The notes beneath the pieces are model-generated. The model ran no database searches. It saw only the letters and a program-made list of their open reading frames with translations, and was not told the DNA's origin. A stretch of DNA of 41,353 bases, taken from UHGV virus genome UHGV-0007119. One strand, written 5' to 3'. The position numbers and the translations under genes are program-made. This DNA is from a virus. Within the stretch, counting starts at the first letter, position 1. Each line of letters opens with the position of its first letter. Below, one piece after another: positions 580-32,399 of this stretch.

Positions 580-2730
580 TTACGGCGCACTGGATAAAAT
601 AGACTTCGTCTTCGTAACAATAACATCTACAAAATCACCTGCAGATATAGCTGATGGTACTGTATCTGCAAGAGTAATCTTTCCTGAAGAGATGTTTTGC
701 ACATCTAATAATTTATTTTCAACCCCATCCGTATATACCAATTTGACATCACTGAATGGAGGGTAATAAGTGGCTGTTCCTTGGTATACATATATTTCAC
801 TGCCTGAAATTGATTTCACTACATACCTGCCCCTTACAAGATTAATTTTGATTTCAGATAAATCGGTTTTATAACAGGTAATTCCTGAACCAATGTTAGC
901 CATACTAATATCAGTATCACTATAATAAGTAATTGCTTTTCCTTGTTTTAAGGTGAAGTTATCTTTTCTTTTCCTTGGCAAGGATGTGCTATTTTTGTAA
1001 TATCTACCAGTTAAGCATAGCCATGAAAATGCAGTATTCGCTACATTACCACCAGAATACACAGCTAAACGAATTGCACTAACTGGAACCCCTTCATTAT
1101 TAATCCTGATCTTAATGGAAGAAATGTTAGCAACAGTAGCATATCTATGGTTAGATGAATCCCATTGCATAGAAGAAGTTATTGCTTCTGTTTGTGAAGT
1201 TATGACATTCCCATCTCCATCTAATGCATACAGGTAAATGCGAAACGATGCCGTATCTGCTGAGAATGTAAACATATCACCATTTCTTACTGGTACATCT
1301 CCAGATTCCCATAACAACCCAAAATTCCGCATAAAAGCAAACTTAGAAGAAACCAGGTGACGGATATTATATAAACCATCTACATCTGTTTGATATGCTA
1401 ATACACCAACTTCTCCATTGTTGGCACTGGATATAAATGGGGTGTTAGCATTTAAAGAAAACAATGTTACTTCATCGGATATATTTTCCTGAACATGAAA
1501 TACTGCATTCCCCTTGCCATTATCAGTTACCTCTACATAAGTGTAAGGTGATGGATTGTATGGTTCATTTGTATAGTAAGGAGAACTTAACCATGAAGCC
1601 TCAATTGAGTTATTCCACGTATATTCACCAAAGTTAATTATCAACTGTTGGTTAGTTATGGATGATGGATATCGTTCAAAACGAAACCCGTAGAAGTAAT
1701 TGTTATCACCTCTTTGAATATCAATTTTACCTGCCCCCTCCATAGTTCCACCATAAAACTTATTGTGGTTATGATGATATGGATTATCAGCGAAAATGAT
1801 ATTATTCGTACGATTCAGATAAAAATAGTTTTCATTTATCCATCCTTTCTCAACTCCAAGAAAATGAATTGTATCGACCTTTTTCAGGTTAAAGGTTGAG
1901 TATGCTATTGAATAATCCGTCGATGCCACCGAAGCATTATAATTTGCATATAACTGTAAGTAGTCGCAACGCTCAATGTTAATATGCTGCCCTTTTGCCC
2001 CGATAATACGAATATCCGGTGTCGTTTCAGATGAAATACCAGAATTTCTGATAATCGTTCCGAAGTTTTGTCTTGGGTTGTTAGGGTTTGATGCATTCCC
2101 GCCAAGCAATACCCCTATTCCTGAGTGGGATATGGTAAAAACAGCATTGGTCATTTCGAGGCTGACATTACGAAGATTTAATGTCTCCGTAATAATAAAA
2201 TTACCTTCCGCTCGTAATGTTCTGGATGATTCTCGTGCATATTCTGCAGCCAAGATCAATGCAGATGTGTCATCTGTTATACCATCGCCTTTTGCCCCCC
2301 ACCCTCTTACATCACAATCGTCCCTCCACCGAGATATCTGCAATTCAGGATATTTTTTAGCTCCATCCGGGTCTTCTAATTGCTGCCGTAGTTGATCAGG
2401 GTCATACTTCAGCACATTAGGAAAATAAAACTGCTGAGTGCCATATGCATCATATACAGCCATAGAATGGCCTTGCACAGTTACGAATTTGGCAATCTGC
2501 CCGTTATATACCGGATATCCAGCAGCGTTAATGATGATTGGTTGCGAAACGGGAACATGAGAGCCGTCTTCGTTCTCCACATAAACCTGAATCTGGTTTT
2601 CAGGATTTACCGGGTCAGTGTCAATTTTTCCGATATAAATTTTGCCATTGGCAACCGCTTTAAAAGAACGCGCCATAGTGAAGAGTTGCGAAGGCATCGA
2701 TACGATCACATTGGCTGTAATGTCTGTCAT
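580..2730 (-). CDS. Tailspike protein: P22-type N-terminal head-binding domain, divergent beta-helix receptor-binding domain
   Basis: 716 aa; first ~110 aa ([11 protein letters not shown]…NVLKYDPDQ) match the remembered P22 gp9 head-binding domain; the rest is unrelated with a [13 protein letters not shown] pectate-lyase-like motif and lower GC. Confidence 0.9.
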
Positions 2731-2830
2731 TTAATTTGCTCCAGATACAATGAATCGCCGCAGCGTGGCCACGGTGAATTTTGGGCATAAAAAAACCCAG
2801 CCGAAGCTGGGTCGTTGCGTTGGTTATCTG

Positions 2831-3766
2831 TCAGTAGTTATGTACTGAAGGAGGTAATTCTTTATTCTTAAGTCTCATCCATGCGGAAAGATTCTTTGGT
2901 CCGTCTGGCTCATTGATATCAACATCTCGTGTGTGATTGATTAAAACGTCTCTCGCCATTCCGATAACATACGAGAACTCATGACCGTAGTCGTAGCATC
3001 TGCCGGAATAGTTCGATTGAATTTGTTTTAATGCCGGATACAGTTCGCGGAATAATGCCTGTGAGCGGTTGGCATAATCCCATAACCATACAAGGCTGTT
3101 TGCTTCTTTTGCAGAAAGCTCGTTGGTTTTCTTCTCTTGTTTGCCAATGAACTCACCTTCAAGCGGAACGCGAGCAGCAAGTGACAGTGCTTCGGTAAAC
3201 TGCTCCTCACTGATTTCTTTGTACGAACATCCAAAATGGGATTTCAGTGACGACCACATGGTGATCATCGCCTTAGCCTGTTTTTCCTTTGGCAGAGACT
3301 GACCGCGACTCATGACGAGTTGTTTAATGGCTTCCTGCTGTTCAGTGGTGATTTTACCCGGCAACGTCTTTTTAGCTTTGCGTGGGTTAACTACATGGCC
3401 TTTAGTCCAGTAGTCATACAGCACGCTAAAGCATTCCTCCTGGTACTGAATCAGTTTATCACGGATGTCAGCACGAACTTTCTCAGGGTTGATGCTGAAC
3501 AGCCATCCATTTAACTTCTTCAAAGGAAGGCAGAGTAGCTTACGAAGCTTCCCATCAGCGGCAACCATGTTCATATGAACACAGTTGAATTTGCTAATCT
3601 GCTTCATGAGTTTTGTTTGCTGCGTTGACCAGCTCATTCCAAGGTTTTCAACGATTGGCTTCATCGCAACGTATGCAACTCCGGCAGCCATGGCGGTGAT
3701 AATTTGCTGACCGTTGAATGGTACGTAAGAGGTGTTCACTGCTTCTAAAATTGCTATACTATTCAT
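2831..3766 (-). CDS. ant: Antirepressor Ant (P22 immI type)
   Basis: Start at internal Met ([21 protein letters not shown]…) preceded by GGAGAAAAACCAAC; sits directly downstream of arc as in P22 immI. Confidence 0.85.
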
Positions 3767-3834
3767 GTTGGTTTTTCTCCACGGATTTACTGACAACCGA
3801 AGCCCTGACTGTTCCCGCAGTTGGGGCTTCAACT

Positions 3835-3996
3835 TTACGCGCCAATGCGCCCTTCCTTCTTAAAGCTTTCCATTACTCTCTGATAAATCTCAGAGTTAAC
3901 AGACCGACCATTCTCTTCCGCCACCTTGCGTACCAAATCCAATACTTCTTTAGGCCACCGCAAATTGAACTGCGGCATCTTGCTCATTCCTTTCAT
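3835..3996 (-). CDS. arc: Arc repressor
   Basis: 53 aa from internal Met: [53 protein letters not shown], essentially the remembered P22 Arc. Confidence 0.9.
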
Positions 3997-4086
3997 ATTC
4001 ACCTCACAATATAGGTCCACCGTGGACCTATTGAGAATATAGTAGAGTGCTTCTATCATGTCAATACACTAACTTGGAGTGATGGC
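3997..4086. promoter_or_regulatory. immI control region (divergent Pant/Pmnt) with Mnt and Arc operators
   Basis: 17-bp palindrome AGGTCCACCGTGGACCT at 4013-4029 (Mnt operator type); ATAGTAGAGTGCTTCTATCAT at 4039-4059 is the reverse complement of the remembered Arc operator. Confidence 0.75.
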
Positions 4087-4338
4087 ATGGCTAGAGATGA
4101 TCCGCACTTTAACTTCCGTATGCCTATGGAAGTAAGGGAGAAATTAAAATTCAGGGCGGAGGCGAATGGGAGATCAATGAACTCCGAGTTGTTACAAATC
4201 GTCCAAGATGCTCTATCAAAACCATCGCCTGTGACTGGATATCGCGACGATGCAGAACGACTCGCTGATGAGCAGTCAGAGCTTGTTAAGAAGATGGTGT
4301 TTGATACGCTGAAGGATTTGTACAAAAAACCCACCTGA
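4087..4338 (+). CDS. mnt: Mnt repressor
   Basis: 83 aa, MARDDPHFNFRMPMEVREKLKFRAEANGRSMNSELLQIVQDAL…, near-identical to remembered P22 Mnt. Confidence 0.9.
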   Translation: MARDDPHFNFRMPMEVREKLKFRAEANGRSMNSELLQIVQDALSKPSPVTGYRDDAERLADEQSELVKKMVFDTLKDLYKKPT

Positions 4339-4348
4339 AGGTGGGTCC
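4324..4348. terminator. Bidirectional intrinsic terminator between convergent mnt and the lipoprotein gene
   Basis: Stem CCCACC/GGTGGG with loop TGAA, flanked by AAAAAA on the plus strand (T-run on the minus strand) and a weaker T-rich tract downstream on the plus strand. Confidence 0.55.
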
Positions 4349-4354
4349 TATTTA

Positions 4355-4774
4355 TTAGTCTTGCTTTGTTGATGGTATAAGAGATGCGTTTGCCTCTTTT
4401 GGCTTCAAGGTATACATTCCACCATTAAATGGATCTACAGCAAGCCAACCAATTAACCCACCAAACACAAGGTTCCCACCAATATACCAACCATTAGCAT
4501 TGGCTTTGATTGGCAGGGTAACTGGTTCATACCCATCCTTCTCCATAGTGATCTGGTAGCTCTTTTTGCCAAAATAGCTACCATCTGACTTGGCGAGCGT
4601 TACACCTTGTGGGGTCTTACCTTGCGCAACAATCACACCTGACTCATCTTTTACCTTAAAGCTCGCGCCAGAAGGATTGCTGTTCACTTGCACAAGTTGC
4701 GTTTCATCACCAACAATAGTTGCGCACCCAGATAACATGATAACGCCAGCAACGACGCTAATAATCCTCTTCAT
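4355..4774 (-). CDS. Lipoprotein of unknown function (moron at the P22 sieA position)
   Basis: Start at internal Met MKRIISVVAGVIMLSGC: signal peptide plus lipobox LSGC; glycine-rich C-terminal segment; AT-rich relative to neighbours. Confidence 0.7.
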   Translation of the reverse strand: MKRIISVVAGVIMLSGCATIVGDETQLVQVNSNPSGASFKVKDESGVIVAQGKTPQGVTLAKSDGSYFGKKSYQITMEKDGYEPVTLPIKANANGWYIGGNLVFGGLIGWLAVDPFNGGMYTLKPKEANASLIPSTKQD

Positions 4775-4892
4775 ATCAATTTCCATATTTAAAAAAAACG
4801 GAAACATCCTAATGACAAATCATTCAAATGTGAAGTAGGCAAAAGATGTTTACTTTTTTCATGGTATCCTGCTCAAAACTAAGGAGGTTGGT

Positions 4893-5216
4893 GTGTATAC
4901 AACAGTTATCGTGATAGCTATCGCACTCATTGTGGTTCAGTACCAACTGGCATCTTTAAAACAAAAGATATCTGACCTCAAGACTGAGAACGAAGCACTT
5001 AAAAACTCAATAAAAGATGAGAAGAACAAACTATCATTCACTATATCTGATATTGAGCAATCCATTGAAATTATTGAGAATAATATTAACAGACTAAAAA
5101 AAGAAGATATTCATGAAATCAATGACAATATCAAGGGTTTGAAATCTTGGCTTAGGAATGTAGGGCAAATCGCCACATCAACACGAGATAAGCTCAATCC
5201 ATCCATGGATGATTAA
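4893..5216 (+). CDS. Small membrane-anchored coiled-coil protein, unknown function
   Basis: GTG start 5 nt after AGGAGG (4882-4887); N-terminal hydrophobic helix (YTTVIVIAIALIVV) then heptad-like charged region; divergent from the lipoprotein gene; AT-rich. Confidence 0.55.
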   Translation: MYTTVIVIAIALIVVQYQLASLKQKISDLKTENEALKNSIKDEKNKLSFTISDIEQSIEIIENNINRLKKEDIHEINDNIKGLKSWLRNVGQIATSTRDKLNPSMDD

Positions 5217-21425: not shown

Positions 21426-21732
21426 CTTCTACTCCGGCTTTTTTAGCAGCGAAGCGTTTGATAAGCGAACCAATCGAGTCAGTACCGATGTAGCCGATAA
21501 ACACGCTCGTTATATAAGCGAGATTGCTACTTAGTCCGGCGAAGTCGAGAAGGTCACGAATGAACCAGGCGATAATGGCGCACATCGTTGCGTCGATTAC
21601 TGTTTTTGTAAACGCACCGCCATTATATCTGCCGCGAAGGTACGCCATTGCAAACGCAAGGATTGCCCCGATGCCTTGTTCCTTTGCCGCGAGAATGGCG
21701 GCTAACAGGTCATGTTTTTCTGGCATCTTCAT
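21409..21732 (-). CDS. S: Holin/antiholin (lambda S, dual-start MKM)
   Basis: 107 aa [41 protein letters not shown]…, near-identical to remembered lambda S107/S105. Confidence 0.95.
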
Positions 21733-22327: not shown

Positions 22328-22819
22328 CTATCCCATACTGGAGAATTCACCATGATATTTTATCCTGGCATTTTCCATTGCCTTTCTCGCCTCCTCGATA
22401 TCGTCAAAACACCCTACATGAATCCTTTTACCATTGACCCTAATTCTTCCAACCCACTTGTTTGCAGCAGAATTAAAAGTCACCCCCTTCACACCAGATG
22501 AATTGTTTTTCCTCATCTTGCTGTTCCATGAGTTTTGAGTGTTAGTAACAACACGAAGATTGGCTATCCGGTTATCAGACCTATCACCATTAATATGGTC
22601 AATCACATCGGTTGGCCAATCATTGTAAACCATCAGCCATGCAATTCTATGGACATATAGCCGCATTCCATAAAGTTTTACCTGCAGATATCCATTTGTT
22701 TTATAGCCAACAACAGCGCCATAAATAAATCTAGAAGACCGAGGTGGATTCTTCCATGTAAGAATTCCAGTATCTGGATTGTAATTAAAAAGTCTCAATG
22801 CATCTTCACGTTTTAACAT
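22328..22819 (-). CDS. HNH homing-type endonuclease with AP2-like DNA-binding domain
   Basis: 163 aa; HNH motif HRIAW…DHINGDRSDNRIANLRVV…QNSWN, then GVKGVTF…NKWVGRIRVNGKRIHVGCFDDIEEARKA (AP2-like); AT-rich; sits inside the pR'-tR' leader. Confidence 0.85.
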   Translation of the reverse strand: MLKREDALRLFNYNPDTGILTWKNPPRSSRFIYGAVVGYKTNGYLQVKLYGMRLYVHRIAWLMVYNDWPTDVIDHINGDRSDNRIANLRVVTNTQNSWNSKMRKNNSSGVKGVTFNSAANKWVGRIRVNGKRIHVGCFDDIEEARKAMENARIKYHGEFSSMG

Positions 22820-23090: not shown

Positions 23091-23714
23091 CTAACGTGTG
23101 ACCGCATTCAAAATGTTGTCTGCGATTGACTCTTCTTTGTGGCATTGCACCACCAGAGCGTCATACAGCGGCTTAACAGTGCGTGACCAGGTGGGTTGGG
23201 TAAGGTTTGGGATTAGCATCGTCACAGCGCGATATGCTGCGCTTGCTGGCATCCTTGAATAGCCGACGCCTTTGCATCTTCCGCACTCTTTCTCGACAAC
23301 TCTCCCCCACAGCTCTGTTTTGGCAATATCAACCGCACGGCCTGTACCATGGCAATCTCTGCATCTTGCCCCCGGCGTCGCGGCACTACGGCAATAATCC
23401 GCATAAGCGAATGTTGCGAGCACTTGCAGTACCTTTGCCTTAGTATTTCCTTCAAGCTTTGCCACACCACGGTATTTCCCCGATACCTTGTGTGCAAATT
23501 GCATCAGATAGTTGATAGCCTTTTGTTTGTCGTTCTGGCTGAGTTCATGCTTACCGCAGAATGCAGCCATTCCGAATCCGGCTTGTGATTGCGCCATCCC
23601 CATAGCAGCCATCACATCAGTACCGGAAAGAGAGTCAGAAGCCGTAGCCCGTGGTGAGTCGCTCATCATTGGGCTTTTTGGCGAATGAAATTTAGCTACG
23701 CTTTCGAGTCTCAT
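23091..23714 (-). CDS. Q: Late-gene antiterminator Q (lambda type)
   Basis: 207 aa MRLESVAKFHSPKSPMMSDSPRATASDSLSGTDVMAAMGMAQSQAGFGMAAF…, matches remembered lambda Q. Confidence 0.95.
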   Translation of the reverse strand: MRLESVAKFHSPKSPMMSDSPRATASDSLSGTDVMAAMGMAQSQAGFGMAAFCGKHELSQNDKQKAINYLMQFAHKVSGKYRGVAKLEGNTKAKVLQVLATFAYADYCRSAATPGARCRDCHGTGRAVDIAKTELWGRVVEKECGRCKGVGYSRMPASAAYRAVTMLIPNLTQPTWSRTVKPLYDALVVQCHKEESIADNILNAVTR

Positions 23715-23899
23715 CGTCTTCCCCTCTTGCCCTGTTTGACCATCAGGACGCCGTTAACTATTACGTGACGTTCGCCTTTGCTGTCTCGGTTGTACTTGAG
23801 CACCGTTCCTCTTGCACAGGAAAGCATCCTCGCCACTTCGGTCTGATTTCCTCGTGTCTGGATAAGAAGCTCTGGTATCGTTTGAATTGTGGCGTTCAT
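23711..23899 (-). CDS. ninH: NinH-like protein
   Basis: 62 aa; …NQTEVARMLSCARGTVLKY…IVNGVLMV… resembles lambda NinH; ATGA overlap with Q. Confidence 0.75.
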   Translation of the reverse strand: MNATIQTIPELLIQTRGNQTEVARMLSCARGTVLKYNRDSKGERHVIVNGVLMVKQGKRGRR

Positions 23900-24258
23900 A
23901 CGTTCTCCAGTTCGGTGATTTTTATTCCAAGCCTTCCGCCTGGTACTTTCACACCACGAATTACGCGAATGTCATCGAATTGCTCGTCGTCTTCCGCAAA
24001 TCCGGCGTGGATAAGTGAGTCGAGTAAACCTTTCAGGATGTTATCGAGGTCGCGGCGGCGGGAGTCTGGAACGTCTGCGATGACTTTGATGCGGAGTCGT
24101 GATTTGGTGAAAATGTCTAACTTGAGTTGGCGGATGATTTGCTGAACGTCTTTTCGGTATTTCTGGCCTTTATCGCTGATGTAGTATTGGCTTCCCCGTC
24201 TTCGCCAGTAGGTGTTCAGCGACGGTGGGTACGGAAGTGTGAATCTGTATTCTGCCAT
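23896..24258 (-). CDS. rusA: Holliday-junction resolvase RusA
   Basis: 120 aa; …PPSLNTYWRRRGSQYYISDKGQKYRKDV… typical of RusA; nin-region position. Confidence 0.85.
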   Translation of the reverse strand: MAEYRFTLPYPPSLNTYWRRRGSQYYISDKGQKYRKDVQQIIRQLKLDIFTKSRLRIKVIADVPDSRRRDLDNILKGLLDSLIHAGFAEDDEQFDDIRVIRGVKVPGGRLGIKITELENV

Positions 24259-24783
24259 TTATCCTCTCCCATGATTATGGTGATAGCCCAATCGTGATTC
24301 CGCCAATTTTCTGGCATTAACGGCTAGAGATATGTCATCGTATAATCCAAGAAATATCTTTTTATTATCACTGTTTATATATGCACCCCACTTTTTATTC
24401 TTCTTATAGTAGGCAACACCAATTACTCCAGAGCGATTATTAATAGGCTTTTTTCTGTTCCTTGAGTTCTGTTTATCATCTACAACGCGCAAATTGCATA
24501 TTCTGTTATCGCTTTTAATTCCATTTATGTGGTCAATTTCCCCATCAGGTTCACTTCCATAAAAGGATATCCATGCGATTCTATGAGCTCGACAAACTTT
24601 TTTATTTACAGATATACGAACGTATCCTTTTTCATCTATAGAACCAGCAATCTTACCGACATATGTTGAATTCCAGCACTCTCTTACACTTTCTCTTCTC
24701 TTGTATATAAACAAACCTGTTTCGCTATTATATTCATACAATTCATTGATTTCTTTTTGTGTTGGATATCTTTTACCGTTCAT
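24259..24783 (-). CDS. HNH homing-type endonuclease with AP2-like domain (paralogue of 22328-22819)
   Basis: 174 aa; HRIAW…DHINGIKSDNRICNLRVV…QNSRN, then GVIGVAYYKKNKKWGAYI…; very AT-rich; abuts the rusA start and overlaps the upstream stop (ATGA). Confidence 0.85.
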   Translation of the reverse strand: MNGKRYPTQKEINELYEYNSETGLFIYKRRESVRECWNSTYVGKIAGSIDEKGYVRISVNKKVCRAHRIAWISFYGSEPDGEIDHINGIKSDNRICNLRVVDDKQNSRNRKKPINNRSGVIGVAYYKKNKKWGAYINSDNKKIFLGLYDDISLAVNARKLAESRLGYHHNHGRG

Positions 24784-25070
24784 GACTTAATCTTCCCCTC
24801 CTTCAGCAGTATCGCCTGCGTCCTGATCACGCCTTCGAGGTGGTAAAGTCTGGCGTCTTTGTTGTCGAGAATCCTTGTGCGTCGGTCGATCTCCGCGTGG
24901 CAGTCACTACAAGCCCATGCACCGATCAGGTCGTCAGGCTTCATTCCCGTTCCGCAAATTCCAGCCATCCTGTAATGTGCCAGAACTGTAGTTTCAGGGT
25001 TGCCATTGCATATGCCGTAAATACGTACCTGGCATGCTCTGCCTCGCGCTTCTTTGCGTAGGTTAGCCAT
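24780..25070 (-). CDS. Cys-rich nin-region protein (YbcO/DUF1364-like, recalled)
   Basis: 96 aa with conserved cysteines (…CQVRIYGICNGNPETTVLAH…CSDCH…); resembles remembered DLP12 YbcO. Confidence 0.6.
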   Translation of the reverse strand: MANLRKEARGRACQVRIYGICNGNPETTVLAHYRMAGICGTGMKPDDLIGAWACSDCHAEIDRRTRILDNKDARLYHLEGVIRTQAILLKEGKIKS

Positions 25071-25795
25071 TAAGCAGCCTCCCCTGTTACTTTCAGCATT
25101 CCGTTATCGAGCAGCTTTCTGGTCAGCCACTGTTGACCACGCCCGGTGATTTTTGTGGTGAACGATATCTGTATTCCGTGATTTGTGTTGACCGCTGTTT
25201 CTTTCACTGTGAAATAGCCGCGATCCATATATTCCTGCATTGGTACATTGCGCCGGGAACCTGAAGCAATAAGGATTTTGTGATCGCGCATCCACGCAAA
25301 CAGTTTGTTTGGACCAATACCAACAACCTTTGCAAAGTTTCCAATCAAAATTCCGCTGGCCTCGCCAACGCGATCGGCAAACTCAACTTTAGGTGCGGCA
25401 ATTGCGAGCTGGTTTTCCAGTTGCATTTTCTGCTCAGCAAGATCAGCAGCAAGGCGCAACGCTTCTGGTAGCGTTTTGGGGATATTAACCGCAGTTTCTT
25501 CAAGCTCTCGCCAACGGTCAACAAGACGAGCGGTGAATTCCGGCGACAATTGGGCGACGACAATAATGCTGTCTCGCTTTCCTTGTTCGCCCTCGAAGAC
25601 GTAGAAATCACGCTCCCCGGTAATAACACCTAAATCATTGATTATGTTAGTGTGCTGCAATGCAGGAGGCTTGATAACGCCACGTTTCACCAATCTATCT
25701 ATGGATACTTTTACATTGCTATGGCGGCTTTCTACCAACTCAGCGATTTCAATGCTTGTCATTTTGATGGCATTGCCATTTATTAACTCATTCAT
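25070..25795 (-). CDS. Rha-family regulatory protein / KilAC-type antirepressor-like protein
   Basis: 241 aa; N-terminal …MTSIEIAELVESRHSNVKVSIDRLV… (Rha-like), C-terminal …FAKVVGIGPNKLFAWMRDHKIL… (KilAC-like); start may be the internal Met at about 25762. Confidence 0.65.
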   Translation of the reverse strand: MNELINGNAIKMTSIEIAELVESRHSNVKVSIDRLVKRGVIKPPALQHTNIINDLGVITGERDFYVFEGEQGKRDSIIVVAQLSPEFTARLVDRWRELEETAVNIPKTLPEALRLAADLAEQKMQLENQLAIAAPKVEFADRVGEASGILIGNFAKVVGIGPNKLFAWMRDHKILIASGSRRNVPMQEYMDRGYFTVKETAVNTNHGIQISFTTKITGRGQQWLTRKLLDNGMLKVTGEAA

Positions 25796-25964
25796 CGTCT
25801 TCTTCCTCGTACATTGAGCTATTCGGATCGCTCATCAGTTCTGCGCAGCAATCGGAGCACACGTGAACTTCCAGCACATGCAGCTTCTGACCGCAGTTAG
25901 CGCACGTTAAAGCTCGCTCGACGCTTTCTTTCTGGTATTGAAGAGATTGGGATGGACTAAGCAT
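25788..25964 (-). CDS. ninF: NinF-like protein
   Basis: From internal Met [50 protein letters not shown]…, close to remembered lambda NinF. Confidence 0.75.
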   Translation of the reverse strand: MLSPSQSLQYQKESVERALTCANCGQKLHVLEVHVCSDCCAELMSDPNSSMYEEEDDE

Positions 25965-26364
25965 GGCTTTCACCATTAAAAAGTCGCTTGTAAGCATCAA
26001 TGTCTCGTTTTGCTTCACCGAGCTTTCGTCTTAATTCCATGTTTTCTGATTCAAGCTTTTCCATGTCTTGTTGGTATCGATCGCGGTGTTCTTTCCATGC
26101 TTTTTGATACGCCTTCATGTATGTCATGTTGGCCTTTCTCTTTGCCTGACGAACTGCGTGGTGGTTTTTCACAAACCAGTCAGGGTCGTTAAATGCTGCT
26201 CTGGCGCATGTATACCAATAATTTGTTGCCTCCCTGTTTAGCCAATAAATACTGATAAATGGCAACCGGATAGACACCATTTTTCGTTGTGACTCTTTCT
26301 CGCCAAACATGTGCCCTTTTTTGATGCTAAGGCCAAATCCAGGTTGAATTAAAAGCATTGTCAT
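25957..26364 (-). CDS. Hypothetical nin-region protein
   Basis: About 135 aa from internal Met [10 protein letters not shown]…; ATGA overlap with the NinE stop; basic C-terminus. Confidence 0.5.
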
Positions 26365-26537
26365 TTCCTCGCGCGATGTCTTAGCCACCGGATATCCCAC
26401 AGGTGAGCCGTGTAGTTGAAGGTTTTTACGTCAGATTCTTTTGGGATTGGCTTGGGTTTATTTCTGGAGCGTTTCGTTGGAAGGTATTTGCAGTTTTCGC
26501 AGATTATGTCGGTGATACTTCGTCGCTGTCGTCTCAT
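26361..26537 (-). CDS. ninE: NinE-like protein
   Basis: From internal Met [58 protein letters not shown], close to remembered lambda NinE. Confidence 0.75.
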
Positions 26538-27061
26538 GCCGCCCTCCTGGCGCCCTGCCCGATCGCCATCAATGCCGATTTGGATACGGTAGTAAACATC
26601 CGTCGAGGACTGATGAACGGTCGCCAAATCAGCAGCATTGAGCCTTTGCTGTTTCCCTTCTTCTCCAGCCCCGTCGATGGTTCGATAAAATTAATCCGTC
26701 CATCAGTGATAATGCGAACTTCGTCGACACTCTCCAGAGCCTTGCTGAACCATCCGACTGACATATCCTCTGGCACAAGCATAACTACAGTCTGTCGCTG
26801 TTGTATGCACTGCTCAGCGGCTTTTTCCACCCACGGCCTGATATTGCTGTACGGTGGGTTATTCCAGATTGCACCGTGGCTTACCCACTCAGAATTGAGC
26901 GCGTCGTCAGCCTCAGTTAGCCAGTGAGCGCACAGGGCGTTTTTGTCGCTCGCTGCCGAATCCAGCCAGAATCCAAACTCAATATCCAGTGCATCAAAAA
27001 GCCAGAGCGGCGTTTGCCAGCAGTCCTTGTCGTGTGCTGGCGTATTTGATTTGATAGTCAT
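26534..27061 (-). CDS. Orphan DNA N6-adenine methyltransferase (phage Dam-like)
   Basis: From internal Met [18 protein letters not shown]…; NPPY catalytic motif (…IWNNPPYSN…); ATGA overlap with the NinB stop; no adjacent restriction endonuclease. Confidence 0.85.
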
Positions 27062-27504
27062 GCAGCCTTCCCTTTTCGTTGTGACCATTCATACTCTCGC
27101 CGGGAGTCATCACTCCACCGCACGTTGCGCTCTGAGCCGAACCAGAACATGATTTCGATAAGCTCAGTCATGCTGGCCTTTCGCATTTTGCTGGTACGCA
27201 CTCCAAGCATAACAACGCCACCGTCGATACCAGGCGCACTTCGTTGCTCCAGTTTTTTGGTCTTAAGCCACAGGGCAGTGAACAGATCTTTCCAGTCCTC
27301 CGGCGCAAGTCTCTCTCCATACCAGAGCACCTGACGCGATACGTCCTGCAATAACGCCCACATAAGGCGGTTTTGAGGATTGCTCCGCTTTGGTTCTTTA
27401 ATGTGGACTTCGTGAGGTGACTTGTCGTCGATCGGAAGTGAGAGTATTGCGTCTATGGCGTTGTTTCTGATTGCTTCGTTGCGAAGCATGTATATTTGCT
27501 TCAT
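27058..27504 (-). CDS. ninB: NinB recombination protein
   Basis: Start MKQIYMLR… after GAGGTAA; …NPQNRLMWALLQDVSRQVLWYGERL… resembles lambda NinB. Confidence 0.85.
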   Translation of the reverse strand: MKQIYMLRNEAIRNNAIDAILSLPIDDKSPHEVHIKEPKRSNPQNRLMWALLQDVSRQVLWYGERLAPEDWKDLFTALWLKTKKLEQRSAPGIDGGVVMLGVRTSKMRKASMTELIEIMFWFGSERNVRWSDDSRREYEWSQRKGKAA

Positions 27505-27511
27505 CGTTACC

Positions 27512-27718
27512 TCAACTAACAAAACGCCACGCCATTTTTGCTACAGCGACAGGCATAACACCGATAATCACCCAGACAAATGCAGCGCCAAACAACGTAT
27601 ACCATGGGTCTTTACCGTCATTCACAAGACGAATGTAGCTATGCAGAACAATAAAAAACGTCAGAAGAATCCATCCAACGCCAACGCATTTGAGTGCGAC
27701 GAGCATAAACTCAGCCAC
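27512..27718 (-). CDS. Small two-helix membrane protein, unknown function
   Basis: 68 aa; GTG start 6 nt after GGGGGAGAG; two hydrophobic helices; first gene after the tR2-like terminator. Confidence 0.45.
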   Translation of the reverse strand: MAEFMLVALKCVGVGWILLTFFIVLHSYIRLVNDGKDPWYTLFGAAFVWVIIGVMPVAVAKMAWRFVS

Positions 27719-27732
27719 GATTTACTCTCCCC

Positions 27733-27765
27733 CAAATAAAAAGGCCTGCAGGTAATCGCAGGCCT
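27733..27765 (-). terminator. tR2-like intrinsic terminator between replication genes and nin region
   Basis: Stem AGGCCTGC/GCAGGCCT (8 bp) followed on the minus strand by TTTTTATTT. Confidence 0.65.
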
Positions 27766-27793: not shown

Positions 27794-29230
27794 TCAGAAT
27801 CCTCCTTTCTTCTTGGACTGCGGTTCCTCACGTTCACGGCGGCGCATTTCAGCAGACTGTTGGTCTGTGTCATAAATAGCGCCATTTGCCTGAATGCAAT
27901 ACACCGTGCCGGTATTGCCATGACGATTGAGGCGAAGGATTAGTTCGGTTTCACCAGGAGGAACGCTGTCATCAAAAGCACCTTCACGATGGATCCCCAC
28001 CCAATAATCGCAATCCTGTTCAATCTGCCCTGTATCTCGTGAGTCACTTGGTAATGGGCGTTTATTGGTTCGGCTTTCCAGTGCGCGGTTAAGCTGTGTC
28101 AGAAGCACAACAACGCAATCAAGCTCTTTGGCAAGGTTCTTCAGTCCTTTGGTGATCATGCCGTAAGCAAGGTCGTTGCGATCGGCCTTCTCAGCGGTCA
28201 TTAGTGTCAGGTAATCGACCAGAATCATGCCAACACATCCTTTTTCTCGCTTGATTCGACGGCTTTCGCTGACGATTTGAGCCAGAGATAATCCCGGCGT
28301 GTCGTCGATGTAAAGCAGGTCGATTTCACTCAAGCGATTGGCTGTTTCGATCGCCCTGTTGAAGTCACCATCGTAATCACCCTGATAGCCGTCATCAGCG
28401 TCATTTGTCGCCGGAAGGTAAAAAATATTCGGGTTAACACCAGACTTCTGCCCTACCAGTTTTTCCAGTATCTGATCACCTGGCATTTCAAGGCTGAACA
28501 TCAAAGCGGGCTTTTTCTCATGCACTGCGCAATTGATTGCCATCTGGCTGTATAGCGTCGTTTTCCCCATCTTAGGGCGAGCGCCAATGACAAACAGAGA
28601 GCCTTTCACCAGACCTTTCGGTGACAGCATCCTGTCCAGCGATGGGATCCCTGTGCTCATTCCCCGTTGTTCGCCTGATGGGTCAAATCGCTTCTCAAGG
28701 TCGCTAACCCAGTCTTCCATGACCTCACCAAATGAGCGAAGGCCGCGACGCGATCCGGTTTTTGCATGGTCTGTCAGTTGCGTGAAAATCGCCTGAATAG
28801 CTTCGTACTTCTGCATTGCAGTCATTCCGTTGCGGGAATAGAGCAATTCCGTCGCTTCAGTCATGCGGTTGATGGCGTAGCGTTCCATTGCGGTTTCACG
28901 AACCTGCATTGCATAGGCAACGATGTTTGCTGCGCTTGGCGTGTTCTTTGCGATCTCAGCGATATAAGCAAAACCGCCAACAGACGCCGTTAACGATTTA
29001 CGCTCCAGTTCATCGAAAAGCGTCAGGCCATCTACTGGCTTTTGCTCACGGTGCATTCTGGTTATTTCTTCGAAAAGGATTTTGTGTGGTCGGCTGTAAA
29101 ATGAATCAGGCTTCAGCATCGCCAGAACTTTCTGGACGCGCTCACTGCTGTCATCATCCAGAAGCAATCCACCAATCACCGCCTGCTCTGCCTCGATGCT
29201 ATGGGGCGGCGCATAAAAATTATCGGTCAT
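27794..29230 (-). CDS. Replicative DNA helicase (DnaB-like, P22 gene 12 type)
   Basis: Start ATG (MTDNFYAPPHSIEAEQAVIGGLL…) after GAGGG; Walker A …GARPKMGKTTL…; typical DnaB N-terminal motif. Confidence 0.9.
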   Translation of the reverse strand: MTDNFYAPPHSIEAEQAVIGGLLLDDDSSERVQKVLAMLKPDSFYSRPHKILFEEITRMHREQKPVDGLTLFDELERKSLTASVGGFAYIAEIAKNTPSAANIVAYAMQVRETAMERYAINRMTEATELLYSRNGMTAMQKYEAIQAIFTQLTDHAKTGSRRGLRSFGEVMEDWVSDLEKRFDPSGEQRGMSTGIPSLDRMLSPKGLVKGSLFVIGARPKMGKTTLYSQMAINCAVHEKKPALMFSLEMPGDQILEKLVGQKSGVNPNIFYLPATNDADDGYQGDYDGDFNRAIETANRLSEIDLLYIDDTPGLSLAQIVSESRRIKREKGCVGMILVDYLTLMTAEKADRNDLAYGMITKGLKNLAKELDCVVVLLTQLNRALESRTNKRPLPSDSRDTGQIEQDCDYWVGIHREGAFDDSVPPGETELILRLNRHGNTGTVYCIQANGAIYDTDQQSAEMRRREREEPQSKKKGGF

Positions 29231-30110
29231 CGTGTTCACCCTCACGAACTTTCAGGTAGGTATTATCGTTAAGCAGGAAATCAAATCCCTTTTTGTGCCA
29301 GACGGTTCCGCGCTGATGGTTTGGGCGCTCTTCGAACATCCATCGGCAATTTTCGCCTACGTAGCTCAAATAATTTCTCCAGTCCTGCATCGTGAAACCA
29401 TGCCCGTCAAGCTGTCGGGTTATCACTCCGGCTTTGCGCCAGAACGTTCGGATCTGGTTTTTACGCTTGTCATTCAGTGCGCGGATTCTTGGCGCTTCAG
29501 GAAGGATTTCGTGGTAAGCATCGACAACATCCTGACAGCTGACGGAAGGTTTTTTCTTGTCAGACTTTTTGTCTGCTGTGGCACTCTCTAATACGTCAGT
29601 ATTAGAGATATTATTTATATTATTGTTTATGGACAACCGTTGGACAACCGTTGGACAATCTCCGCTGAGAGGCGCGCCATTACTGGTGTTTGCGTTGGAC
29701 AACCGTTGGACAACCGTTGGACAATTTTTTGCCTGAAAATCGTCATATTTAACGATTGTAAACAGGCTAAATTTCTTCCCCATCGAGCAAATATTAAGCA
29801 TCCCTTTCGACTCAAAAGTCCGTAATAAGCTCCGAACTTTGTTGTCGGGGATGAATGTTTCTCTGACCAGCGACGGGCGTCCAGTTATCATCTGACCGCG
29901 ATCAACAGTTATCGGCCCGATATCCGTATTGACGACAGTAGATTCGTGATTAGCCTTGAGGATTAAGTGAAGCCAAAGATGTACTGCCTGAGAGTCCTTA
30001 TAGAGCCTGCTGTCCATAAACTGGCGGTGTATAGAGACATACCCCATACTGGATGCCTCCTGATGTTGTACAGGGTTATGCCTGTAATCAGCTAATTTAA
30101 CGACGCCCAT
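29220..30110 (-). CDS. Replication initiation protein (O-like) containing the origin iterons
   Basis: 296 aa; AGGAG RBS; located between cII and the helicase; iteron array lies inside the coding sequence, as for lambda O. Confidence 0.8.
   Translation of the reverse strand: MGVVKLADYRHNPVQHQEASSMGYVSIHRQFMDSRLYKDSQAVHLWLHLILKANHESTVVNTDIGPITVDRGQMITGRPSLVRETFIPDNKVRSLLRTFESKGMLNICSMGKKFSLFTIVKYDDFQAKNCPTVVQRLSNANTSNGAPLSGDCPTVVQRLSINNNINNISNTDVLESATADKKSDKKKPSVSCQDVVDAYHEILPEAPRIRALNDKRKNQIRTFWRKAGVITRQLDGHGFTMQDWRNYLSYVGENCRWMFEERPNHQRGTVWHKKGFDFLLNDNTYLKVREGEHDDR
29631..29724. repeat. Origin of replication iterons (11-bp GGACAACCGTT repeats, two clusters) with adjacent AT-rich tract
   Basis: GGACAACCGTTGGACAACCGTTGGACAATC at 29631-29660 and GTTGGACAACCGTTGGACAACCGTTGGACAAT at 29693-29724, then TTTTTTGCCTGAAAATCGTCATATTTAACG. 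Confidence 0.75.
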
Positions 30111-30292: not shown

Positions 30293-30571
30293 TCAGGCCT
30301 CGAAGAATTCGCCGTTCTTCGGGGCTTTTTCTTTTGTCAGCATTCTGGCTACTTTCTTAGCCAGTTCCGCCAACTCCTCGTCTTCAACACCCCATTCAAG
30401 AACAGCCAGAAGCATTCCCATTTTTGGGATGAAGCTGTCTTTCCATCGCGAAATTTGCGATTCATTAATCCCTAACGCGTCGGCAACCTTTCGCTGACCA
30501 CGTACAGCAATTCGATTCAGGATGTTGCTTGTAATTGCATTCGCTTTCTTGCGAGTACTTGTAAGTTGCAT
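30293..30571 (-). CDS. cII: CII-like transcriptional activator
   Basis: From internal Met MQLTSTRKKANAI…; core …SQISRWK…IPK…MLLAVLEWGV… matches the lambda CII family; RBS AAGGA. Confidence 0.85.
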   Translation of the reverse strand: MQLTSTRKKANAITSNILNRIAVRGQRKVADALGINESQISRWKDSFIPKMGMLLAVLEWGVEDEELAELAKKVARMLTKEKAPKNGEFFEA

Positions 30572-30650
30572 ATGTAAGTATTTCCTTAGATAACAATTGA
30601 TTGAATGTATGCAAATAAATGCATACACCATAGGTGTGGTTTAATTTGAT

Positions 30651-30906: not shown

Positions 30907-31017
30907 ATGCCCTCCATAGTAACCATGAAACAATAATACGATATGTACTTTTAGAATGCAAACAAAAAATACATCTTGTGCATGGATGGTTTTAGTACAG
31001 AGCGTAATAATAAGGGT
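30907..31017. promoter_or_regulatory. OR region: pR (minus strand), pRM and candidate operators
   Basis: pR on minus strand: TTGCAT (30961-30956), 17-bp spacer, TATTAT (30938-30933). Candidate operators AATACGATATGTACT (30936-30950) and AATACATCTTGTGCA (30968-30982). Confidence 0.7.
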
Positions 31018-31677
31018 ATGAAAATGAAATGGTATGAACTGGCTAGATCCAGAATGAAAGAGCTCGGCATAACTCAAGAGAAGTTAGCTGAAGAGCTTGG
31101 TATGACGCAGGGTGGAATTGGTCACTGGTTGCGCGGATCTCGTCATCCATCTCTTGACGAGATTGGTGTGGTGTTTAAATACCTTGGTATTGATAACGTC
31201 TCATTCAACCACGACGGTACATTTTCACCTGTTGGCGAATACTCATCTGCCCCCGTTAAAAAACAATATGAGTACCCTGTTTTTTCTCATGTTCAGGCCG
31301 GGATGTTCTCGCCTGAGCTTAGAACCTTTACCAAAGGTGATGCGGAGAGATGGGTCAGCACAACCAAAAAAGCCAGTGATTGTGCGTTTTGGCTTGAAGT
31401 TGAAGGTAATTCCATGACCGCTCCAACAGGATCCAAGCCAAGCTTTCCTGACGGGATGTTAATTCTCGTTGACCCTGAGCAGGCTGTTGAGCCAGGTGAT
31501 TTCTGCATAGCCAGACTTGGTGGTGACGAGTTTACCTTCAAGAAACTGATCAGGGATAGCGGTCAGGTGTTCCTACAGCCACTAAACCCGCAATATCCAA
31601 TGATTCCATGCAATGATAGCTGTTCCGTAGTAGGGAAAGTTATCGCCAGCCAGTGGCCTGAAGAGACATTTAGTTAA
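31018..31677 (+). CDS. cI: CI-type prophage repressor (HTH plus S24 autopeptidase domain)
   Basis: C-terminal ~135 aa (…[37 protein letters not shown]…) near-identical to remembered lambda CI; N-terminal HTH domain differs. Start 31018 or 31024. Confidence 0.9.
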
Positions 31678-31900: not shown

Positions 31901-32072
31901 AGCATTCAAAGCAGAAGGCTTTGGGGTGTGGTGAAGGGTTCATGGATGGGAATATGTCGCACGTAAAGCGGCGAGGCCTGCGGAACTATTGCCGAATTGA
32001 AGTCGGCCGAAGCAGGTCGAAATGGGTCTCCCACCTACCACACCACCAAAGCTAACTGACAGGAGAATCCAG

Positions 32073-32399
32073 ATGGATGCACAAACACGCCGCCGCGAAC
32101 GTCGCGCAGAGAAACAGGCTCAATGGAAAGCAGCAAATCCCCTGTTGGTTGGGGTAAGCGCAAAACCAGTTAACCGCCCTATTCTCTCGCTGAATCGCAA
32201 ACCGAAATCACGAGTAGAAAGCGCACTGAATCCGATAGACCTTACGGCGCTGGCTGAATACCACGAACAGATTGAAAGCAACCTGCAACGTATTGAGCGC
32301 AAGAATCAGCGCACATGGTACAGCAAGCCACGCAGTGAAATGGGCGTGACTTGTGTTGGTCGCCAGAAAATGAAATTAGGCAGCAAACCACTTATTTGA
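32073..32399 (+). CDS. N: Antitermination protein N (lambda type)
   Basis: Start MDAQTRRRERRAEKQAQWKAANPLLVGVSAKPVNRPILSLNRKPKSR… after AGGAG; near-identical to remembered lambda N. Confidence 0.9.
   Translation: MDAQTRRRERRAEKQAQWKAANPLLVGVSAKPVNRPILSLNRKPKSRVESALNPIDLTALAEYHEQIESNLQRIERKNQRTWYSKPRSEMGVTCVGRQKMKLGSKPLI

Follow-up and report, generated by a model that had tools for sequence, protein, structure and literature searches.

P22-type immI and HK022-type roi in a P22-like prophage of Escherichia coli

Does a single P22-like prophage carry two antirepressors under separate regulation? The question is raised by UHGV virus genome UHGV-0007119, a stretch of 41,353 nucleotides that was analysed as a whole and is called the window here. 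The initial annotation had placed in it a P22-type immI cassette and, in the nin region, a second antirepressor-like gene. Comparison with known phages leads us to regard the pair as, very probably, a canonical immI cassette and the known gene roi. The original observation is correct, was partly over-interpreted, and concerns things already known.

A mosaic prophage at the tor locus

The open reading frame listing, family searches and BLAST all indicate a P22-like prophage of E. coli, and by its sequence the prophage is a mosaic Lederbergvirus. An exact-protein look-up matched the window to the entire contig CAOAMB010000001.1 (41,353 bp, GCA_948238115.1) and found the same prophage adjoining torT-torR-torC-torA in two gut-metagenome contigs of ~230 kb; the insertion site is next to torT, in the tor locus. 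Coverage of each half of the window stays below 80% in every complete E. coli genome and every phage record, and the whole prophage reads as a new mosaic in which every module is already known. The principal features are collected in the table below.

Searches with phmmer of all 520 open reading frames of at least 40 amino acids recovered the four known genes but no further paralogue of Ant, Roi, Rha or Arc, and no P22-type Rha in the late-region slot. The LexA box CTGT-N8-ACAG has no exact match within the window, and the 15 matches with one mismatch, none of them upstream of ant or roi, are close to the 14.4 expected by chance. No LexA box lies near either gene, and ant and roi are placed outside the class of LexA-controlled antirepressors (Gifsy GfoA, N15 AntC and 186 Tum type).

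Features of the prophage, in window coordinates
Feature	Coordinates	Strand	Description
Late genes	580-2730 (tailspike)	-	Tailspike, then ejection proteins, portal, coat and terminase genes
Intrinsic terminator after ant	2794-2813	-	Found by terminator search; same feature annotated in epsilon34
ant	2831-3766	-	P22-type antirepressor, 311 aa; Pfam P22_AR_N (9e-45) and P22_AR_C (6e-30)
Psar promoter	3732-3760	+	Predicted; inside the ant 5′ end; transferred from the epsilon34 annotation via a 98.9% identical alignment
sar antisense RNA	3767-3834	+	Rfam RF00262, 95.6 bits (gathering score 43), E 2e-19, full length 1-68
arc	3835-3996	-	53 aa; 52/53 identical to P22 Arc; Pfam Arc (3e-30)
Omnt operator	4013-4029		AGGTCCACGGTGGACCT; perfect 17-bp palindrome; identical to P22
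Pmnt promoter	4031-4059	+	TTGAGA-17-TATCAT; 10/12 consensus match; annotated in P22 record X01916
Pant promoter	4036-4064	-	TTGACA-17-TATATT; 11/12 consensus match; coincides with the arc-ant promoter annotated in X01916
Oarc operator	4039-4059		ATGATAGAAGCACTCTACTAT, sequence read; identical to P22
mnt	4087-4338	+	83 aa; 81/83 identical to P22 Mnt; Pfam Arc (4e-30) and Repressor_Mnt (7e-19)
Bidirectional hairpin terminator	4329-4346		Between mnt and the converging lipoprotein gene; terminator-like site on the plus strand; annotated in epsilon34
Lysis genes	20515-21732		
Q	23091-23714		
nin region	about 23896-27522		
roi	25070-25795	-	241 aa; 239/241 identical to HK022 Roi; pRha-like N-terminus, ANT/KilAC C-terminus
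IHF consensus in roi	25631-25643	-	AATCAATGATTTA; one of only 4 matches to WATCAANNNNTTR in the window
tR2-like terminator	27742-27765	-	Between the replication genes and the nin region (P / ninB); 9-bp stem with 6 GC pairs, then a T run
O/P replication genes	27794-30110		
cII	30293-30631		
Prophage repressor	31024-31677	+	Likely Ant target; Pfam HTH_3 and Peptidase_S24
N	32022-32399		
int	starts 40280		

The immI cassette and its control region

Positions 2831 to 4338 run exactly from the stop codon of ant to the stop codon of mnt and, on sequence comparison, enclose a complete P22-type immI cassette, or “ant moron”, made up of mnt, arc, sar and ant. It is a canonical cassette and apparently a functional one. 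The mnt gene is divergent from arc and ant, which share the opposite strand. The sole change in Arc relative to P22, R16K, is also found in epsilon34 and N7, and the N-terminal beta-strand sequences of Arc and Mnt (ARDDPHFNFRMP in Mnt) are identical to those of P22. These strands hold the DNA-recognition residues of the two proteins, which are conserved.

Pant and Pmnt are the two best promoter matches of the region and overlap face to face. Read on the minus strand, the order of elements is TTGACA-ATGATAGAAGCACTCTACTAT-ATTCTCAAT-AGGTCCACGGTGGACCT-...ATG, the last being the start codon of arc. When the control region is aligned with the P22 immI record X01916, the first 78 nucleotides of the alignment are identical, and these include both promoters and both operators. 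The sar RNA is complementary to the arc-ant spacer and to the ribosome-binding site of ant, and the predicted Psar has a TATACT -10 element (3755-3760) placed 7 nucleotides before the sar start. At the other end of the cassette, the bidirectional terminator presents a hairpin followed by a T run when read on the minus strand.

The claim that the cassette is intact and retains both operators is thus borne out by full-length open reading frames and by Oarc and Omnt sequences the same as those of P22, agreements that go far beyond chance and confirm the observation. An intact cassette that keeps both operators should subject Ant to Mnt, Arc and sar in precisely the P22 manner. Control by Mnt and Arc, as originally proposed, is supported as an expectation founded on identity with P22, and sar can be added to it.

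By homology with P22, Mnt bound to Omnt in the lysogen would block Pant, so that Ant would not be made. After infection or derepression, Pant would fire and Arc would accumulate, bind Oarc and shut both Pant and Pmnt, while sar RNA made from Psar would pair with the ant ribosome-binding site and limit translation. This regulatory logic has been described (PMC2629481 and PMC11016777), and deletion of immI lowers the frequency of lysogeny (PMC11016777).

The cassette shares with P22 immI its gene order and orientation, the overlapping Pant and Pmnt, the identical operators, the sar RNA, and a position flanked by the gene for the last ejection protein on one side and the tailspike gene on the other. 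The differences from P22 are that sieA is absent here, with a lipoprotein gene and an hkcB-like gene in its place, and that the host is E. coli rather than Salmonella. Another close match is the ant moron of epsilon34 (genes 14-18), with 98.9% nucleotide identity over 89% of positions 2700-4900. This epsilon34-like stretch covers genes 14 and 15, mnt, arc, sar and both ends of ant, whereas the central 234 bp of ant differ from epsilon34 and belong to the type found in N7, CUS-3 and UPF_BP1.

Ant and its likely targets

Both Pfam domains of Ant score far above their gathering scores, and the protein matches PHROG 245, “anti-repressor Ant”, at 2e-100. A longer open reading frame of 333 amino acids, beginning at a TTG at 3832, was rejected since it would start within the sar/arc-ant spacer; the true start codon is the ATG at 3766, the one used in P22.

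The identity of Ant to its counterparts is 71.7% for P22, 83% for epsilon34 and 92.3% for N7. These values reflect a mosaic gene, in which the N- and C-terminal parts are of epsilon34 type while a central segment of ~234 bp (3164-3399) is of N7/CUS-3 type, matching ant of coliphages N7, HZ41 and CUS-3, Salmonella phage UPF_BP1 and several Stx phages at 93-98% identity. The different central segment accounts for Ant being 11 amino acids longer than P22 Ant as well as for its lower identity. In the protein, the differences cluster at about residues 124-200, a stretch that separates the two Pfam domains. This is ordinary mosaicism of the kind known for the “ant morons” of P22-like phages, which are mosaic, highly variable and often degraded (PMC2629481). 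The central third is unlike that of P22 and epsilon34, and given this divergence the range of targets of Ant may differ from theirs.

A likely target is the repressor of the prophage itself, which combines its own helix-turn-helix domain with a C-terminal domain of the lambda cI type. Its last ~135 amino acids are nearly identical to those of lambda cI, including the VQAGMF cleavage region, and the whole protein is 100% identical to cI of phage vB_EcoP-683R2. The start codon was taken from the identical gene in phage 683R2; the open reading frame itself spans 30976-31677 on the plus strand. The repressor is of the self-cleaving S24 type and is expected to be cleavable through RecA, so that SOS induction should proceed without Ant. 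In P22, likewise, Ant is dispensable for induction, lytic growth and lysogenic growth (PMC3121763).

P22 Ant binds C2 non-covalently (PMC3121763), and its action extends to the L, lambda and 21 repressors, a result of Susskind & Botstein (1975) quoted in PMC3121763. By analogy, Ant once made would bind repressors of the cI/C2 type non-covalently and inactivate them, and its targets probably include the prophage's own repressor as well as those of other lambdoid prophages. Action on its own repressor, which is of the lambda cI type, is plausible because P22 Ant inactivates lambda cI. Cross-talk between Ant and heteroimmune repressors is not new, having been known since 1975, and Lemire et al. 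have already speculated that P22 Ant couples induction among co-resident prophages (PMC3121763).

The roi gene and the question of a second antirepressor

The interval 25070-25795 corresponds to exactly one open reading frame, which its near-identity to the HK022 protein identifies as an HK022-type roi. The initial annotation described the product as having a Rha-like N-terminus and a KilAC-like C-terminus, and domain searches favour the two halves unequally. The ANT/KilAC domain (PF03374) is strong, with 113.2 bits against a gathering score of 25.3 over residues 127-229 (1e-32). Phage_pRha (PF09669) aligns over its full profile (1-91 of 91) with residues 12-100 at an E value of about 5e-6, but it scores only 25.1 bits with the whole protein and 27.6 bits with the N-terminus alone, against a Pfam gathering score of 29.9. 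The same domain is present in the precomputed Pfam assignments of most close Roi homologues among the matches listed, and BLASTP found no similarity between the N-terminus of Roi and the P22-type Rha of phage Gally. For Roi and Ant alike, domain searches revealed no AntA domain, no NCBIfam model applies, and comparison with PDB sequences gave no match at E values up to 0.1. An AlphaFold2 model of Roi, built from an alignment of 14 close homologues, was unusable (mean pLDDT 44.8, pTM 0.32), and the helix-helix-hairpin pattern that seems to occur twice in its secondary structure is only suggestive.

The gene is widespread. Its DNA matches 219 phage records, including HK97, mEpX2, HK542, HK620, N7, 933W and VT2-Sakai, and a large protein database holds more than 7,700 relatives of the protein, the best 120 of which are all at least 83% identical. 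Among the matches listed, these are named “DNA-binding protein” or “phage antirepressor KilAC domain-containing protein”, and the PHROG 63 and PGAP names for Roi say “anti-repressor”. The biochemical role of Roi is poorly defined, and such database names are derived from domains rather than from experiments.

To call roi a gene of the nin operon under early-right control, as was done at the outset, is a fair description. Its start codon overlaps the stop codon of ninF (ATGAATGA), its stop codon overlaps the start of a ybcO-like gene (TAATG), and a tR2-like terminator lies upstream. No convincing promoter was found upstream of roi within the nin region. The gene probably needs N antitermination, and it would be expressed as a delayed-early gene of the PR operon in an N-dependent manner.

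HK022 Roi reportedly binds inside its own gene, beside an IHF site, and a Rha phenotype on IHF mutants was reportedly described by Henthorn & Friedman (1995). The IHF consensus within roi listed in the table is consistent with the one that Clerget & Boccard (1996) are reported to have described in HK022 roi. A search for inverted repeats in roi that might serve as a candidate Roi operator found none.

As in HK022, roi lies between ninF and a ybcO-like gene and upstream of rusA and Q, and it is carried by HK97, mEpX2, HK620 and 933W as well. Unlike in HK022, an HNH endonuclease open reading frame separates the ybcO-like gene from rusA here, and the virion is of the podovirus type rather than that of an HK97-like siphovirus. 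One parallel to the pairing of ant with roi is Escherichia phage N7 (MH717096.1, Lederbergvirus), which also has a 311-aa Ant, arc, and a Roi (88% amino acid identity) in its nin region. N7 differs in having another Arc-family protein, of 68 amino acids, in place of the P22-type Mnt, and a repressor of the P22 C2 type rather than one with a lambda-like C-terminal domain. Stx phages of the Phi24B/933W type also combine a P22_AR_C-type Ant, which promotes efficient induction, with Roi in one genome. In those phages, however, ant is the direct neighbour of roi in the nin region and is free of mnt/arc/sar control, whereas here ant resides in a late-region moron under immI control.

On the reading that we prefer, Roi would be a DNA-binding protein of the HK022 type, built from a Rha-like winged-helix domain followed by KilAC. 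According to Clerget & Boccard (1996), whose work is cited in PMC3430580 and PMC4587872, HK022 Roi binds DNA and prevents lytic growth in IHF mutants, and DNA binding by the present protein would follow by homology. The initial annotation had instead taken the second protein for an antirepressor. A genuine second antirepressor, made from PR and inactivating the repressors of heteroimmune co-resident prophages, would give the prophage two independently regulated proteins of this kind, and several observations could be read in that direction: the strong ANT/KilAC domain, named after P1 Ant1/KilA; the “anti-repressor” names of PHROG 63 and PGAP; the Stx phages, where roi adjoins an ant that promotes induction; and the precedent of Fels-1 FsoA, an early-operon antirepressor that acts on a foreign repressor (PMC3121763). 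The claim is nevertheless not supported, since the 99% identical HK022 protein is reported to be a DNA-binding protein, with IHF-dependent growth inhibition as its phenotype. Moreover, our literature search turned up no account of repressor binding by Roi, what exactly KilAC does is said to be unclear (PMC9043618), and the database names derive from domains. We consider a second antirepressor improbable, and cross-talk of Roi with foreign repressors is pure speculation. A different role is suggested by AriS of Listeria phage phi10403S (AntA/AntB plus ANT/KilAC), in which the KilAC domain inhibits the SOS response while regulation of the phage falls to a variable N-terminal domain, either AntA, Bro-N or pRha (PMC9043618). 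By analogy, the Rha-like domain of Roi would bind phage DNA while KilAC damped host SOS/RecA activity, which would tune SOS-inducible co-resident prophages with no binding of repressors. Roi has the two-domain layout described for AriS-like proteins, with KilAC at the C-terminus and pRha among the alternative N-terminal domains of the family; KilAC alone inhibited the SOS response in Listeria (PMC9043618); and the repressor of the present prophage should be cleavable through RecA. Yet the relationship to Roi is remote, the activity has been shown solely in these very distant Listeria proteins, and inhibition was seen on overexpression, whereas native AriS levels did not lower SOS transcription (PMC9043618). 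This reading, too, seems to us quite unlikely. Both roles concern biochemistry alone and leave the identification of the gene as roi unchanged.

The remaining alternative concerns the other locus: immI might be a decaying remnant without function, like the degraded ant of HK620 and Scho1. Ant morons are indeed often degraded in P22-like phages (PMC2629481), and phage Gally keeps mnt only. Against this stand the full length of ant, arc and mnt, the identity of promoters and operators with P22, the full-length sar with its high score, and the occurrence of exactly this Ant protein on 8 independent contigs, all of which make decay very improbable. A canonical, apparently functional cassette remains our reading.

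For the prophage itself the finding matters little beyond correct annotation, immI being a textbook system and roi a known gene. A broader idea is that enterobacterial Roi acts in trans as a modulator of the lysis-lysogeny decision through KilAC, either by binding cI-type repressors or by damping RecA/SOS as AriS does. We think this unlikely; if it were true, Ant under immI control and Roi under PR control would constitute two separate channels to co-resident prophages. Since nearly all Stx phages carry roi, action of Roi on repressors or on SOS, if shown, would bear on their induction and on the release of toxin. The question of Roi function extends to the entire Roi family, and nothing particular to this window raises it.

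Nor is the pairing of ant with roi new, since N7 and Stx phages carry both. The genome paper of epsilon34 mentions roi 0 times and describes its nin region as homologues of ninA, B, D, E, F and Z plus two short genes. HK620 has roi together with its degraded ant, Gally has Roi and a late Rha beside its solitary mnt, and immI occurs without Roi in phage 611R6 and in E. coli strain 09-00049. Because relatives carry one without the other, immI and roi are independently assorting modules.

The mosaic ant gene and its neighbours

The antirepressor gene ant carries a recombination patch at 3164-3399, where the central 234 bp of the gene are of the N7/CUS-3-type allele; outside the patch the gene is epsilon34-type. 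This central patch accounts for the encoded Ant being 11 amino acids longer than that of P22. For the neighbouring arc product, residues 2-53 match chain G of PDB 9pio, a 79-amino-acid protein described as an ‘Arc family DNA-binding protein’ (7e-30).

The stretch that separates mnt from the last ejection-protein gene holds sieA in P22, but here it is occupied by genes for a predicted lipoprotein and a 107-amino-acid protein (see table). The former has a weak PEGA-domain match, and the latter yielded only weak Pfam matches, all to coiled-coil families. Both products are candidates for a role in superinfection exclusion.

Features of the prophage outside ant and arc
Feature	Coordinates	Strand	Remarks
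Tailspike	580-2730	-	P22 head-binding domain, residues 1-113 (6e-67)
Predicted lipoprotein gene (150 aa)	4355-4807	-	Counterpart of epsilon34 gp15; PHROG 6823
107-aa protein gene	4893-5216	+	Counterpart of epsilon34 gp14 / HK620 hkcB
ORF with Tad2-like domain	19813-20415	-	Between lysis cassette and small terminase gene
HNH_3 endonuclease ORF with AP2 domain	22328-22819	-	Between Q and holin gene
HNH_3 endonuclease ORF	24259-24783	-	Inserted between ybcO-like gene and rusA
DNA methyltransferase gene	26534-27088	-	nin region; PHROG 111 (5e-88)
Prophage repressor ORF	30976-31677	+	Hybrid: own HTH, lambda cI-like C-terminal domain

Accessory genes from the lysis cassette to the nin region

The slot next to the small terminase gene holds Rha in P22 and Gally, whereas in this prophage it is filled by an ORF whose product matches PHROG 872 (unknown function). 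Residues 118-200 of that product match the Tad2-like (Thoeris anti-defence 2-like, PF11195) domain (1.2e-21), and the ORF may be an anti-Thoeris gene.

The two HNH_3 ORFs, which are 39% identical to each other, probably encode homing endonucleases. The second of them (24259-24783) separates the ybcO-like gene from rusA, a site at which no gene is present in HK022 or mEpX2. The DNA methyltransferase gene is bordered by ninB on one side and by ninE/ninF-side genes on the other, and N7 carries a DNA methyltransferase gene at the same position of its nin region.

Tailspike, repressor and prophage ends

Few phage matches extend into the tailspike gene, those of vB_EcoP-611R6 and Gally being the examples, and the receptor-binding part of the protein had no match in Pfam or NCBIfam. 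The C-terminal domain of the prophage repressor is almost identical to that of lambda cI (324.9 bits against PDB 3bdn), and the repressor shares 100% identity with the cI of phage vB_EcoP-683R2.

The window (1-41353) is the whole of contig CAOAMB010000001.1 (GCA_948238115.1). The best phage matches to its early half, including HK022 and Gally, reach the last base, and the annotated integrase genes of these and other best phages fall within the matches. In two gut-metagenome contigs of ~230 kb, an identical prophage end is adjoined by torT/torR/torC/torA.
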